Source of the DNA: Eledone cirrhosa
Taxonomy: Eukaryota
Direction of reading: 5' to 3'
Length of the DNA stretch: 64,000 nt
NCBI GenBank assembly: GCA_964016885.1
Contig: OZ024749.1
Location: 38,626,001-38,690,000 of the forward strand
Part shown: in pieces, positions 7,967 to 60,166 of the stretch
How positions within the stretch are numbered: the first letter of the stretch is position 1
How the letters are laid out: each line of letters starts with the position of its first letter
Notes under the pieces: generated by a model
Seen by the model: the letters and a program-made list of their open reading frames with translations, nothing else
What the model was told of the DNA's origin: nothing
Databases searched by the model: none
Made by a program: the position numbers and the translations under genes

Positions 7967-8121
7967 TTCATTATTTCTGAAGACGGCGTATATATGTGTT
8001 TGGTATGTATATTTAATCTTGATAATTTGTATAATTTTGTATAATTTTGTACATAGATCTGTTGAATATGCATACCAATTATAACACATATATATCCTAG
8101 AAACGATCGTTAAATAATGAA
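7967..8121 (+). ncRNA. Type I hammerhead ribozyme with a very long stem II (PLE terminal repeat)
   Basis: 10-bp stem I ttcattattt/aaataatgaa, core CTGAAGA (7977) and GAAA (8100), palindromic stem III ACGATCGT, and about 115 nt between the core boxes that can pair (tatatatgtgtt/aacacatatata; tggtatg/catacca). Confidence 0.65.
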
Positions 8122-8333
8122 CTTTTTTTGTTTAATATAAGGAATTGTTTGTTCATTATTTGTTTAATATTTTATATATATATATATATATATATAGGAA
8201 CGAGTAGGACCCCGACGGCTGAGCTCAAGCCGTTTCGACGGCTAATTCTGGACCTATTACTCACTCTACTACCCTAAGTATTGAGTACTTTGGTGCGTTA
8301 TGGTCCATCTGGTTCCTTACCACATTTCCTTCG

Positions 8334-8759: not shown

Positions 8760-8836
<77 letters not shown>

Positions 8837-8965
8837 GATAAATCTACCAAAATATACGGTAGTGTCCAATCCGTATGAAGAACTCAATGTAATCCAAATA
8901 TCATGAAAAGAGAAGATGCATTCAAAAATTTTCGATGAAAATCACAGGAAACCAGAGTCAAGATA

Positions 8966-9330
8966 AATTAATAAAAACAATGAATAAAAACAAAGAACGT
9001 TCCTTATATTAAAAAATTCATCATTTTACGATCGTTTCTAGGATATATATGTGTTGGTATGTATATCATATAGATCTATGTAAACATTTTACAAACTATC
9101 AGAGGAAATATACATACCTTCACATATATATGCTGTCTTCAGAAATAATTTCTGAAGACAGCATTATATGTGAAGATATGTATATTTCCTCTGATAGTTT
9201 GTAAAATGTTTACATAGATCTATATGATATACAAACCAACACACATATATATCCTAGAAACGATCGTAAAATGATGAATTTTTTAATATAAGGAACTTGT
9301 TCTGTGTTTTTATTCATTGTTTTTATTAAT
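8966..9330. mobile_element. Palindromic pair of PLE terminal-repeat fragments, each with the long-stem-II hammerhead
   Basis: Arms of about 180 bp are centred near 9147. CTGAAGA...GAAACGATCGTA is present on both strands. Related copies at 38560-38708 (+) and 48308-48495 (-). Confidence 0.75.
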
Positions 9331-9366
9331 TTATATATATATATATCTGTGTGTGTGTGTGTGTGT

Positions 9367-11982: not shown

Positions 11983-11990
<8 letters not shown>

Positions 11991-13619
11991 ATACTTTGGG
12001 AGGGTCATGTTGCCAATAAGAAACACACGCACCAGTTGCTTTCACTTCAATTTATTATATATTTATAAATTTACAAATTTACAAATCTATCAATTTCTGG
12101 TTGGTTGGTTGGTTCCACAACCAGATAGTTGTTTATATATAGTCATAGTCCTTTCGTCACACACTCTGTGACCTCCTCAGTGACCGGGGATTCCCTTCTT
12201 TGTTTCTGTGCCTCTCCTTTGTTCTGCCCTACGCCATTTTGTTTCTGTGTGTGTGTTGTGTGCTCAGTTGTGTGTTGTATGTGTCTCTCTAGTTCTTCGG
12301 GGTTGCACATGCGGGACACATTTCTCATCACCCGTACCAAATCCGCAATCAGGTGATGAGAAATGTGTCCCGCATGTGCAACCCCGAAGAACTAGAGAGA
12401 CACATACAACACTTCATCCACCGTATGCAGTTCTCTGGCTACAATCAGAGAGATAGAATCAGAGTGTATAGAGGAGCCAGAACCAAATGGGAAAAAATGA
12501 TAAATAATGACATAAATGGGACCTGCCCCTTGTATAGGAGCAAATTTTGGAATAGAATAGAAAGAACTAGGAACAAGGCTAATAGAATAAACTCATGGTA
12601 TGATAGCAATAAATACCAGAGTGTAATGTTCATCGATACAACCCCTAGAGGCGAACTAGCCTACAAATTTAGAAGGGCCCTAAATAAACATAAACTCAAT
12701 ATTAAGATAGTAGAAAGACCAGGTACCTCCGTAAAAACACTTATTAGCAAGACATACCCTTTTCAAAGACCCTCATGTATAGATAAGAAATGTATAACCT
12801 GTAAAATAAGCCCCCGTATTAACTGTAAAACTAGAAATGTAGTGTATAGCATAAGATGTACTGAAGGACAATGTAGAAACAAAAATATAGTGTACATAGG
12901 TGAGACAACTCGTAGTATAGGGGAACGGATAAATGAACACTGGCGAGACCTTCAAGATAATAAAGAATCATCTGTACTCTACCAACATGCTAAGATAGAA
13001 CACAAGGGTAAATTAGAGAACATAGAAATAAAAATAGAATCTACACACAGAAAAGATGCAATGTTTAGACAAATTACAGAGGCAATAAACATAAAAGAAT
13101 TACAACCAAAATTAAATAGAAAATATGAGTGGAACAGCAACATCACAACTTACAATTAAGGACAAAATTAAAACACACACACACATAGAACAAACAACCA
13201 ACCAATAACATGTAAATAAATAAACAAATAGATAAATGAACATAAACACACACAGACACCCGGATGTGGCGCATGCGCAAACTGAGCACACAACACACAC
13301 ACAGAAACAAAATGGCGTAGGGCAGAACAAAGGAGAGGCACAGAAACAAAGAAGGGAATCCCCGGTCACTGAGGTCACAGAGTGTGTGACGAAAGGACTA
13401 TGACTATATATAAACAACTATCTGGTTGTGGAACCAACCAACCAACCAGAAATTGATAGATTTGTAAATTTGTAAATTTATAAATATATAATAAATTGAA
13501 GTGAAAGCAACTGGTGCGTGTGTTTCTTATTGGCAACATGACCCTCCCAAAGTATAACAATATCGGTTTCAACACACGATTTCAGATTAAGAATCTTGCT
13601 AAACAAATTCAGAAACGAA

Positions 13620-13620
<1 letters not shown>
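11983..13620 (+). mobile_element. 5'-truncated Penelope-like element with inverted terminal repeat (arms 11983-12269 and 13280-13563)
   Basis: ORF 12353-13159 encodes a PLE thumb end (FSGY), C..C..C, then NVVYSIRC..C...YIGETTRSIGERINEH...EAINI...LN (GIY-YIG). It is flanked by inverted ~285-bp repeats, a 3' tail and (TA)n on both sides. Confidence 0.92.
12141..12185 (-). ncRNA. Minimal hammerhead in the inverted terminal repeat
   Basis: Minus strand: ggtca CTGAGGA g gtcaca gagtg tgtgac GAAA ggac TA tgact. The + copy at 13364-13405 lacks 3 nt of the core. Confidence 0.6.
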
Positions 13621-34379: not shown

Positions 34380-34415
<36 letters not shown>

Positions 34416-34724
34416 GTAGATAAATTGAAACAAAATGAAAACGAAATTTCATTTCTCACTCTTAGTATGGCACTTACTTAAATGTAAGTATGCATGTATA
34501 CGTACATACATATATGTATACAGACGTACAGTAGCATGCACATATATATATATATATATACATATATACATACATATGCATACAGGTACACATACATATA
34601 TGCACGTATCAGTTTAGCGGCGCTAACGTCGCTTTGTTCGTTTGTAAACAAACTGAACAGCCTGAATTTATGCCATACGGTGTTAAGGCAACCACGTAAC
34701 CTTTTTGTTCAACACTGACACAGG

Positions 34725-34769
34725 AACGATGTACTAGTTTCAAGCTTGTTAGCTATCATCAGCACCGTT
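34725..34769 (-). ncRNA. Type I hammerhead ribozyme (repeated every 468 bp: 35193, 35661, 36129, 36597, 37065, 37533, 38001)
   Basis: Minus strand: aacggtg CTGATGA t agct aaca agct t GAAA ctag TA catcgtt. Stem I has 7 bp with one G-U, stem II 4 bp, stem III is the palindrome ACTAGT, and the GUA cleavage falls between 34732 and 34731. Confidence 0.88.
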
Positions 34770-37700
34770 TACCCATCTGCCAGATAGTTGAACGTTCGAA
34801 AGTATATACTTTCCTTATGAAAATTAACGGCTGAGCAGCCTAATTTGCATATTGAGTGAGTTAAATCGGTCAGGCATACCGAAAACGATAAATTGAAACA
34901 AAATGAAAACGAAATTTCATTTCTCACTCTTAGTATGGCACTTACTTAAATGTAAGTATGCATGTATACGTACATACATATATGTATACAGACGTACAGT
35001 AGCATGCACATATATATATATATATATACATATATACATACATATGCATACAGGTACACATACATATATGCACGTATCAGTTTAGCGGCGCTAACGTCGC
35101 TTTGTTCGTTTGTAAACAAACTGAACAGCCTGAATTTATGCCATACGGTGTTAAGGCAACCACGTAACCTTTTTGTTCAACACTGACACAGGAACGATGT
35201 ACTAGTTTCAAGCTTGTTAGCTATCATCAGCACCGTTTACCCATCTGCCAGATAGTTGAACGTTCGAAAGTATATACTTTCCTTATGAAAATTAACGGCT
35301 GAGCAGCCTAATTTGCATATTGAGTGAGTTAAATCGGTCAGGCATACCGAAAACGATAAATTGAAACAAAATGAAAACGAAATTTCATTTCTCACTCTTA
35401 GTATGGCACTTACTTAAATGTAAGTATGCATGTATACGTACATACATATATGTATACAGACGTACAGTAGCATGCACATATATATATATATATATACATA
35501 TATACATACATATGCATACAGGTACACATACATATATGCACGTATCAGTTTAGCGGCGCTAACGTCGCTTTGTTCGTTTGTAAACAAACTGAACAGCCTG
35601 AATTTATGCCATACGGTGTTAAGGCAACCACGTAACCTTTTTGTTCAACACTGACACAGGAACGATGTACTAGTTTCAAGCTTGTTAGCTATCATCAGCA
35701 CCGTTTACCCATCTGCCAGATAGTTGAACGTTCGAAAGTATATACTTTCCTTATGAAAATTAACGGCTGAGCAGCCTAATTTGCATATTGAGTGAGTTAA
35801 ATCGGTCAGGCATACCGAAAACGATAAATTGAAACAAAATGAAAACGAAATTTCATTTCTCACTCTTAGTATGGCACTTACTTAAATGTAAGTATGCATG
35901 TATACGTACATACATATATGTATACAGACGTACAGTAGCATGCACATATATATATATATATATACATATATACATACATATGCATACAGGTACACATACA
36001 TATATGCACGTATCAGTTTAGCGGCGCTAACGTCGCTTTGTTCGTTTGTAAACAAACTGAACAGCCTGAATTTATGCCATACGGTGTTAAGGCAACCACG
36101 TAACCTTTTTGTTCAACACTGACACAGGAACGATGTACTAGTTTCAAGCTTGTTAGCTATCATCAGCACCGTTTACCCATCTGCCAGATAGTTGAACGTT
36201 CGAAAGTATATACTTTCCTTATGAAAATTAACGGCTGAGCAGCCTAATTTGCATATTGAGTGAGTTAAATCGGTCAGGCATACCGAAAACGATAAATTGA
36301 AACAAAATGAAAACGAAATTTCATTTCTCACTCTTAGTATGGCACTTACTTAAATGTAAGTATGCATGTATACGTACATACATATATGTATACAGACGTA
36401 CAGTAGCATGCACATATATATATATATATATACATATATACATACATATGCATACAGGTACACATACATATATGCACGTATCAGTTTAGCGGCGCTAACG
36501 TCGCTTTGTTCGTTTGTAAACAAACTGAACAGCCTGAATTTATGCCATACGGTGTTAAGGCAACCACGTAACCTTTTTGTTCAACACTGACACAGGAACG
36601 ATGTACTAGTTTCAAGCTTGTTAGCTATCATCAGCACCGTTTACCCATCTGCCAGATAGTTGAACGTTCGAAAGTATATACTTTCCTTATGAAAATTAAC
36701 GGCTGAGCAGCCTAATTTGCATATTGAGTGAGTTAAATCGGTCAGGCATACCGAAAACGATAAATTGAAACAAAATGAAAACGAAATTTCATTTCTCACT
36801 CTTAGTATGGCACTTACTTAAATGTAAGTATGCATGTATACGTACATACATATATGTATACAGACGTACAGTAGCATGCACATATATATATATATATATA
36901 CATATATACATACATATGCATACAGGTACACATACATATATGCACGTATCAGTTTAGCGGCGCTAACGTCGCTTTGTTCGTTTGTAAACAAACTGAACAG
37001 CCTGAATTTATGCCATACGGTGTTAAGGCAACCACGTAACCTTTTTGTTCAACACTGACACAGGAACGATGTACTAGTTTCAAGCTTGTTAGCTATCATC
37101 AGCACCGTTTACCCATCTGCCAGATAGTTGAACGTTCGAAAGTATATACTTTCCTTATGAAAATTAACGGCTGAGCAGCCTAATTTGCATATTGAGTGAG
37201 TTAAATCGGTCAGGCATACCGAAAACGATAAATTGAAACAAAATGAAAACGAAATTTCATTTCTCACTCTTAGTATGGCACTTACTTAAATGTAAGTATG
37301 CATGTATACGTACATACATATATGTATACAGACGTACAGTAGCATGCACATATATATATATATATATACATATATACATACATATGCATACAGGTACACA
37401 TACATATATGCACGTATCAGTTTAGCGGCGCTAACGTCGCTTTGTTCGTTTGTAAACAAACTGAACAGCCTGAATTTATGCCATACGGTGTTAAGGCAAC
37501 CACGTAACCTTTTTGTTCAACACTGACACAGGAACGATGTACTAGTTTCAAGCTTGTTAGCTATCATCAGCACCGTTTACCCATCTGCCAGATAGTTGAA
37601 CGTTCGAAAGTATATACTTTCCTTATGAAAATTAACGGCTGAGCAGCCTAATTTGCATATTGAGTGAGTTAAATCGGTCAGGCATACCGAAAACGATAAA

Positions 37701-38248
37701 TTGAAACAAAATGAAAACGAAATTTCATTTCTCACTCTTAGTATGGCACTTACTTAAATGTAAGTATGCATGTATACGTACATACATATATGTATACAGA
37801 CGTACAGTAGCATGCACATATATATATATATATATACATATATACATACATATGCATACAGGTACACATACATATATGCACGTATCAGTTTAGCGGCGCT
37901 AACGTCGCTTTGTTCGTTTGTAAACAAACTGAACAGCCTGAATTTATGCCATACGGTGTTAAGGCAACCACGTAACCTTTTTGTTCAACACTGACACAGG
38001 AACGATGTACTAGTTTCAAGCTTGTTAGCTATCATCAGCACCGTTTACCCATCTGCCAGATAGTTGAACGTTCGATAGTTGAATGTTCGATAGTTGAACG
38101 TTCGATAGTTGAACGTTTGTTTCAATTTATCGTTTTCGGTATGCCTGACCGATTTAACTCACTCAATATGCAAATTAGGCTGCTCAGCCGTTAATTTTCA
38201 TAAGGAAAGTATATACTTTCGAACGTTCAACTATCTGGCAGATGGGTA

Positions 38249-38293
38249 AACGGTGCTGATGATAGCTAACAAGCTTGAAACTAGTACATCGTT
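38249..38293 (+). ncRNA. Type I hammerhead ribozyme in the inverted terminal copy of the array
   Basis: aacggtgCTGATGAtagctaacaagcttGAAActagTAcatcgtt can be read directly on +; predicted cleavage after 38286. Confidence 0.88.
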
Positions 38294-38700
38294 CCTGTGT
38301 CAGTGTTGAACAAAAAGGTTACGTGGTTGCCTTAACACCGTATGGCATAAATTCAGGCTGTTCAGTTTGTTTACAAACGAACAAAGCGACGTTAGCGCCG
38401 CTAAACTGATACGTGCATATATGTATGTGTACCTGTATGCATATGTATGTATATATGTATATATATATATATATATGTGCATGCTACTGTACGTCTGTAT
38501 ACATATATGTATGTACGTATACATGCATACTTACATATATGTAGATACATCTACATATAGTTTGTATAATTTTGTACATAGATCTGTTGAATATGCATGC
38601 CAATTCTAACACATATATATCCTAGAAACGATCGTTAAATAATGAACTTTTTTTGTTTAATATAAGGAACTGTTTCATTGTTTTATTCATTATTTGTTTA

Positions 38701-39106
<406 letters not shown>

Positions 39107-39589: not shown

Positions 39590-39981
39590 TAGGAGGTGAG
39601 TTTTATTGTAGTACAATAAAGCAATGCAGATATCGGATAAGAAGCACTCTACAGTTTGTAGGACTGGAGTATACATAATATATAAGATCAAAAGATGGTT
39701 AAAGGAGTTCCATGTATTTTATTATGCGCATTTCAAAAACAAACATCATCATGCAATAATATTTGTGTTTTCATCAGATAAAACAGGAGGACATGATATG
39801 AAGGCTAAAAAAACTTGTGGATAGTGCAGTTTTAAATCAACTATCCACAAGTGTTTTTTAGCCTTCATATCATGTCCTCCTGTTTTATCTGATGAAAACA
39901 CAAATATTATTGCATGATGATGTTTGTTTTTGAAATGCGCATAATAAAATACATGGAACTCCTTTAACCATCTTTTGATCT

Positions 39982-59644: not shown

Positions 59645-59849
59645 CAGGGTCATAAGTAACCGGACAATCAATGGATCGTTATTGCAAGGTTCACAATATA
59701 TTGACGAATGGGGTCAGCTTTTCGAACGACTTTATATTTTTTTTAGATTGTTGTATTTATAATTTCGTGCTGTATGGCCAGAAAGTTAGTAAATATTATC
59801 ATTTTGAATTATAATTGTTGAGCTGCGCGGTCACTTATGACTCACCCTG
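59645..59849. mobile_element. Tc1/mariner-type MITE
   Basis: TA|cagggt..cataagtaaccg ... cggtcacttatgactcaccctg|TA. Confidence 0.65.
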
Positions 59850-60166
59850 TATACATATATATATATATGTATACTGTCGCATCGGTAAACAAACAATATA
59901 GTTTAGTTTCAACTAGCAATAACCACGCCTCGGACAACCCTCATTGGCTATGGTACGGCCTCTGCGCAAAGCTATATATATATATGTGGGTGTAAGTGTG
60001 TGTGGGGGGGGGGTGTAAGTGTGTGCGCGTGTGCGTATGCGTGAGTGTTTGCTATTTTATTTCAGGCATTCAAACATTAGCTGATGAGAAAAGTGGCAGT
60101 GGTTTTGAAGTTTCATCTTTGTTGCTTCATCAGGCTGCGTTGGGTGTCTGGAATTTGTTTATTTAT

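Follow-up and report, generated by a model that had tools for sequence, protein, structure and literature searches.

A tandem repeat with a predicted hammerhead motif, inserted head to head at a (TA)n microsatellite of Eledone cirrhosa, with features of Penelope-like element integration

The stretch of Eledone cirrhosa DNA analysed here (hereinafter the window: 64,000 nucleotides of contig OZ024749.1, from a 3.0-Gb, AT-rich animal genome) contains a tandem array beside a (CT)7(AT)11 microsatellite (34380–34415), the target site of the insertion. The array, which we call the T1 arm (34419–38075), comprises 7.81 units of 468 bp with a GC content of about 0.36; its RNA sense is the minus strand, and it starts at terminus T1 (unit position 1–2). 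The seven full copies (units 1–7, 34419–37694) show no differences among themselves, and unit 8 is the same as these until 38075 (unit position 381), where it breaks off 2 nt inside a 16-bp palindrome (unit 380–395; 34798–34813 in the first unit) that is predicted to form an RNA hairpin. The original prediction had the last unit stop at a palindrome, which is indeed where it stops, but the cause may be the 16-bp hairpin starting at unit position 380, not GAACGTTC.

The end of unit 8 coincides with the first of four copies of a 15-mer, starting, as had been claimed, at 38059, 38074, 38089 and 38104, that is, the native 15-mer followed by three re-copied ones (the stutter, 38059–38117, plus strand). 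The second copy carries a single C>T change, and the fourth matches at 14 of 15 positions, without the last base. The predicted strand flip of about 420 bp is an exact reverse-complement match of 421 bp (the T2 arm, 38116–38536, plus strand), overlapping the stutter by 2 nt (TT). This arm runs from unit position 16 to 1 and from 468 to 64, crossing the unit–unit junction as originally described, with a read-through of merely 16 bp, and its outer end is terminus T2. The 13-mer reported at both outer ends is present on the plus strand at 34410–34422 and 38535–38547; the last 4 nt of the left copy also match unit positions 1–4, and the first 2 nt of the right copy match unit positions 65–64, putative priming microhomologies at T1 and T2, respectively. 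All coordinates given originally hold on re-measurement; what had been missed was a hammerhead motif within the unit and the fact that both outer ends are fixed termini of a repeat family. The insertion is made up of the 468-bp unit alone and contains no open reading frame (ORF) with reverse transcriptase (RT) and GIY-YIG domains, such that it behaves as a passenger of Penelope-like elements (PLEs) and not as an autonomous PLE.

The insertion lies at the edge of an older (TA)n-anchored repeat (38541–38706), of which the first part (38541–38556) resembles the terminus found at 8834 and at loci L015, L069 and L090, whereas the remainder (38557–38706) is, by sequence comparison, an arm of an abundant repeat, 92% identical to 8036–8196 and 78–82% identical to three other copies. 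The right flank had been interpreted as a PLE terminal-repeat fragment; what is there is a real two-ended, (TA)n-anchored repeat, of at most putative PLE origin. Together with 8834–9335, this segment of the window represents another abundant two-armed (TA)n-anchored repeat, with termini about 130 nt apart, in which neither an ORF nor a canonical hammerhead was found. Further to the right, a 129-bp inverted repeat (38822–38950), near-perfect and flanked by (TA)n tracts, has a hammerhead-like core, and a motif scan identified more hammerhead-like motifs at 39885 and 46976 (plus strand) and at 39781 (minus strand). The window also contains a match to U4 spliceosomal RNA (59830–59973, minus strand; 73 bits) that exceeds the Rfam gathering score.

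On the minus strand, each unit encodes a minimal type-I hammerhead fold (34728–34766 in the first unit, recurring every 468 bp in 8 copies of the T1 arm, with a further copy at 38252–38290 in the T2 arm), with a 7-bp stem I, the CUGAUGA...GAAA core and a palindromic 4-nt stem III. The predicted cut falls between unit positions 314 and 313 (34732/34731). The motif scan recovered the hammerhead with paired stem I in all 9 passes through the unit; a narrow Rfam scan of the unit gave a weak match to HH9 (E=0.029, below the gathering score), and among the best 150 of the 371 rows of the whole-window Rfam scan there was no hammerhead. Older copies of the repeat contain 29 distinct hammerhead variants, in which the changes are mostly at N7, in loop II and in distal stem I, the core being conserved apart from position N7.

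One predicted hammerhead per non-coding tandem unit fits the animal non-LTR retrozymes, and judging by the form of the unit and this predicted fold, the array fits a non-LTR retrozyme, for which self-cleavage and circular RNA are predictions. As in the animal retrozymes described in the available text of PMC7229834 (Cervera and de la Pena 2020) and 10.64898/2026.07.22.740005 (Li, Clavereau and Pollet 2026), the unit is short, non-coding, tandem and low in GC, carries a single type-I hammerhead, and is dispersed as multimeric insertions at many loci, with target duplications longer than 4 bp (13, 28 and 39 bp; 25 and 45 bp) and co-occurring PLEs. At 468 nt, the unit is longer than the 170–400 nt given in the former source but inside the 51–972 nt range of the latter, and a further difference is that its hammerhead is of the minimal kind. 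A long older array with a period of about 442 bp, 82% similar to the window unit, occupies loci L024–L028 (G000:C2:383026422-383043427); it is a possible ancestral source locus.

Across the genome, exact copies of the T1 and T2 termini number 878 and 483, respectively, against 0 for the reversed controls, so this recurrence is not due to chance. The two termini are about 63 nt apart in the unit and both abut (TA)n. In the first 21 related loci outside the window, the arms start at unit position 2 (T1) or about 61–65 (T2), in each case beside (TA)n. Within the first 375 Mb of contig 1, half of the T2 ends (30 of 60) face an exact T1 within 10 kb, where 0.08 would be expected. These paired contig-1 loci, together with L021 and the window, make up set 1 (31 loci); because its arms are separated by foreign sequence, L103 was set aside and enters neither the counts of junctions nor those of duplications. 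All 31 loci have head-to-head arms, with the antisense (cDNA) strand reading inward from each end. Set 2 consists of 38 T2 loci chosen without regard to pairing, among which 32 have an opposite arm, T1 being reached within the fetched stretch in 29, and six are single-armed. All 29 resolved pairs combine T1 with T2, and there are no T2+T2 pairs. Another 20 T2 loci lacking an exact T1 partner were mapped as well. The check originally proposed, a comparison of junctions at other loci of the family, thus reveals the two-arm layout at 31 loci of set 1 and 29 of the 38 loci of set 2. The arms reach 16 units (L118), and both are multimeric in L112, L117, L118 and L223. All mapped outer ends lie in (TA)n, but the search patterns that yielded most of the loci require TA; at loci found without this requirement, the outer ends are mostly in TA as well. 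At one further locus, L199 (G000:C2:68711214-68717520), a retrozyme arm meets, at unit position 299, a tandem LINE-like element that has an FMDD RT motif and an (AAT)n tail.

This recurrence bears on the trivial explanation that the locus is an assembly or sequencing artefact, either a fold-back chimera or a collapsed repeat. The assembled contigs of five public runs leave positions 38076–38098 and 38542–38553 of the window uncovered, filled and empty joins alike, so that no contig spans the stutter or the right duplication copy, although such gaps prove nothing. More than 60 loci show the same architecture with different junctions, the T2|(TA) junction is covered at high depth in the short-read contigs of run X1, and a duplication that includes non-repeat letters flanks the event, all of which makes an artefact highly improbable.

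The 13-mer is very likely a target-site duplication. An origin from the element itself was rejected, since the family termini do not extend beyond unit positions 2 and about 65 and neither contains the central letters of the 13-mer. Most loci show no duplication because they are sited in pure (TA)n, where none can show, and the informative cases are therefore those in which the duplicated stretch is interrupted by letters other than TA. Such duplications were found at 3 of the 31 loci of set 1 (13, 28 and 39 bp) compared to 3 of 930 mismatched flank pairs, and at 8 of 34 loci of set 2 compared to 30 of 1122 mismatched pairs; of the latter eight, three amount to trivial one-base cases, and periodic microsatellites account for two. 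The rates at other loci, which exceed those of mismatched pairs, thus support the original proposal of a 13-bp duplication. The 13-mer also follows (TA)n at 8828 (its third copy in the window) and in L015, where in both cases it opens an older repeat; the predicted empty site thus corresponds to a natural border between (TA)n and an old repeat.

Outside the insertion, the window contains a 5'-truncated PLE, probably of the Neptune type (11983–13620, plus strand), with a GIY-YIG frame at 12293–13159 and a pLTR carrying a hammerhead motif, for which the original prediction claimed the same inverted-end architecture. The inverted T2 arm of this element is confirmed (11983–12269 versus 13280–13563, 99% identity) and is accompanied by a tail of about 57 bp. 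The local PLE family to which it belongs is young, with 96–100% identity in 150 scored matches and open frames of up to 1238 aa. Both ends were read in 13 two-armed local copies; each of these pairs a T1 end with a T2 end, about 59 nt apart, and has the tail of about 59 nt at one end only. The frame of L164 contains the RT motifs, a CX4CxxC linker, the CCHH residues and GIY-YIG; the combination of a C-terminal GIY-YIG, CCHH and an upstream CX2-5CxxC linker, found both in L164 and in the window frame, points to Neptune or, as it also fits Nematis, to the latter, under the criteria in the available text of PMC8557442 (Craig et al. 2021). Searches of Pfam and PDB did not name the PLE protein, and its identity rests on these motifs.

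In the same portions of PMC8557442, PLEs, the RTs of which are sister to TERT, are described as having inverted copies, tails and a bias for (TA)n, with the origin of their tandem, inverted and tailed insertions called undefined; the corresponding part of PMC11167929 (Frangieh 2024) describes a purified PLE protein that cuts and extends both strands, with two internal start sites bounding the tail. The retrozyme family shares with these EN+ PLEs of the Neptune type the partial tandems, the adjacent inverted copy, the tail at one end and two RT starts, and would also share the preference for (TA)n and the cutting and extension of both strands. The differences are that the retrozyme repeat contains no ORF and that no homology to the pLTR of the neighbouring PLE was detected in it, that its tail, about 63 nt, like that of the local PLE, 59 nt, exceeds the 30–40 nt given for PLEs in these texts, and that its arms are multimers of up to 16 units as opposed to partial tandems. 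A BLAST comparison detected no homology of the 468-bp unit to the pLTR or the rest of the PLE at 11983–13620, and this PLE family is therefore a candidate partner; by eye, a TATCG word is common to the start sites of the unit and the PLE. The link of the array to PLE machinery, as originally claimed, is supported by the two-arm rule in the local PLE family and by the other loci.

In L015, a retrozyme arm runs to unit position 70 and there passes directly into a PLE arm that is truncated at its 5' end, comprises ORF and pLTR and is about 73–77% similar to the local PLE family. In L185 (G000:C1:437955620-437961900), a 58-bp T2 arm adjoins a 5'-truncated, unrelated PLE-like RT/GIY-YIG frame; the arrangement may be chimeric or result from a later insertion at the microsatellite of the unit, and as the junction lies at the edge of that microsatellite, we did not count it as a chimera. 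PLE arms also occur in or beside retrozyme copies at (TA)n in L013 (1815–1886), L072, L046 and L182, some of them inside the unit microsatellite, and some are tiny two-armed copies of about 70–125 bp.

We consider it probable that the array is a single recent retrozyme insertion, in which a Neptune-type PLE enzyme nicked both strands of (TA)n and primed synthesis from both 3' ends, probably on one RNA circle. Under this scheme, staggered nicks up to 13 nt apart would yield the duplication, and the primers would pair with the template over 4 nt at T1 and 2 nt at T2. The enzyme at T1 would then make 7.8 turns round the circle and the one at T2 0.9 of a turn. The T1 cDNA would stall at the foot of the 380–395 hairpin and slip back 15 nt on the GA repeat three times, producing the stutter; the two cDNA ends would be joined via TT, and second-strand fill-in would finish the insertion.

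The original prediction invoked a circular or multimeric template, which is supported by variants shared between the arms and by a scar that recurs in every pass through the unit. Fixed variants agree between the arms in 15 of 16 comparisons, the exception being L021, with two differing sites. The rare allele of the window (unit position 280) is present in all 9 passes and in 28 copies genome-wide; the 19 copies elsewhere are single units, except for one older pair. Similarly, the allele of L101 is found in 5 of 5 passes, and its 71 matches include no comparable run at any other place. We rejected the idea that every shared variant is private: one allele marks a lineage, occurring at 16 places and in both orientations at seven of these, so that sharing between arms alone does not prove that one molecule was copied. 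All five passes of L102 lack the same 7 nt, up to the predicted cut site, a deletion seen at no other locus; in L129, 6 nt are missing, with the deletion again ending there. The remaining deletions at the cut site (6 of 12 matches) are of 1 nt, and at a control site, all 13 are of 1–2 nt, the numbers being small. The repeated deletion in L102 is the best evidence favouring a circular template.

The same two-ended PLE priming could have taken place without a circle, on one or two linear multimeric transcripts of a homogeneous source array. That lineage alleles are common to many loci is in keeping with such transcripts, and arms of identical sequence could also come from two RNAs of a single source locus; the discordant arms of L021 and the chimera in L015 show that two RNAs are usable, and in the available text of PMC11167929, uncleaved RNA is the dominant substrate in vitro. 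Furthermore, the ends of arms are weakly enriched around the cut site: 6 of 76 T2 arms end at 308–318 (P=0.009, for an interval chosen after looking and with some ends placed by eye), an indication that linear, cut RNA occasionally serves as template. As the principal source of arm ends, run-off at this site can be dismissed: only 1 of 62 set-1 ends falls within 310–317. Linear transcripts are nevertheless hard to reconcile with the cut-site deletion in all five passes of L102, for which the assembly contains no source locus, with the window and L101 alleles, which are fixed in all passes and found in no other run of consecutive young units, and with arms of up to 16 units (L118), so that we regard this version as unlikely.

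The inner junctions provide information on how copying ended. Among the 31 of set 1, 16 have microhomology of 1–5 nt, one is blunt, nine contain short inserts and five are templated or stuttered. The T1 arms of this set end at unit positions 56–64 in 5 of 31 loci and at 379–383 in another 5 of 31 (P=0.001 for two such clusters, by simulation). In set 2, 2 of 32 T1 ends fall within 56–64 (P=0.13) and 4 of 32 within the widened interval 56–67 (P=0.009), and the pause at 379–383 was not replicated (1 of 32, P=0.29). In LINE-1 twin priming, both target strands prime synthesis, and the resulting inversion is joined by microhomology. The family described here is similar in that T1 arms sometimes end at the T2 site, but the second priming site is fixed rather than variable, and most T1 arms run past the T2 site, often for several rounds, so that the arms overlap in sequence rather than abut.

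In the window, the 2 nt (GA) by which the T1 arm enters the palindrome recur 15 nt earlier, and it is the stretch between these two occurrences that was copied three more times; the C>T change of the second 15-mer is absent from the next copy. In L096, there are six copies of a 12-mer beyond the native one; the 4 nt on which they realign lie at the foot of the T2 hairpin, and one copy again carries a substitution that is missing from the next, whereas L221 contains a 21-mer in three copies at the T1 start. Stutters of at least three copies occur at 3 of 90 mapped loci, and two-copy templated pieces at several more. Substitutions confined to one copy are what repeated copying of a fixed template would give, for which reason slippage of the RT on RNA is our preferred reading, host end-joining being a possible source as well. 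Telomerase adds repeats by realigning its template such that a short stretch is copied repeatedly. The stutters resemble this process in that a short template is re-copied by realignment on 1–4 nt, in two of the three cases by a predicted hairpin; they differ in being rare (3 of 90 loci) and varied in position, and look like a by-product of stalling rather than a programmed reaction.

A greater role for the host is conceivable if a short retrozyme insertion was later expanded by unequal crossover, and the inversion and stutter were made by end-joining, for example, of the polymerase-theta-like type, rather than by RT. The microhomologies of 1–5 nt and the templated inserts do resemble microhomology-mediated joining, the final join may well be the work of host repair, and local tandem amplification has been proposed in the available text of Li et al. 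2026. Against this origin, the inverted arm ends, on its outer side, at a fixed site of the family and not at a random break, both arms can be multimeric (as in the four loci named above), there are 0 differences over 3.66 kb, and the stutter is a direct repeat of the last 15 nt of the arm itself, which needs a complementary template. Expansion by crossover therefore appears improbable to us, and we retain PLE-mediated insertion as the preferred explanation.

A more specific version, that a dimeric PLE enzyme runs two RTs at once on one ribozyme-made circle, each from its own fixed start and primed by one strand of a staggered cut, with telomerase-like re-copying of 12–21 nt several times over at hairpins, is one that we put forward tentatively and consider somewhat doubtful. 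If it is true, the genome holds fossils of cut-site circularisation, rolling-circle reverse transcription and telomerase-like addition by the closest retroelement relative of telomerase.

The class of the element and the PLE footprint are each already known, as are inverted arms and tails for PLEs. Mobilisation of retrozymes by PLEs was proposed in both PMC7229834 and 10.64898/2026.07.22.740005, so far on the strength of co-occurrence and homology in the available text of these papers, and a circular template was proposed in the former in 2020. The main text of the two, as available, makes no mention of head-to-head arms, two fixed termini, (TA)n targeting, stutters or cut-site scars, on which the supplements may bear; the words 'inverted' and 'microsatellite' have 0 occurrences in the available text of PMC7229834. 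The union, at the junction level, of retrozyme and PLE footprint, cut-site scar and stutter was not found in the literature searched, outside of which lie supplements and most subscription papers. The family offers hundreds of near-identical insertions, with exact starts, target duplications, junctions and template marks, along with a co-resident PLE with a long open frame, and makes two-strand priming at fixed sites, rolling-circle copying of a ribozyme circle and realignment of the RT at hairpins testable in vitro.

Two further patterns were observed in the sequences of the family. In set 1, G>A is the dominant substitution when read in the RNA sense (39 of 81, with repeated passes counted), a bias that may stem from strand-biased deamination or RT error; a signature of A-to-I editing is not evident in this set, with A>G accounting for 3 of the 81. 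In addition, the unit (38116–38433) appears almost unchanged in runs X4 and X5, under the labels of other organisms. In X4, it is represented by one 470-nt contig with a single difference and a depth of 7, no other contigs of the family being matched, and low-level cross-contamination by a high-copy repeat seems a likelier source of the unit in these two runs than horizontal transfer.
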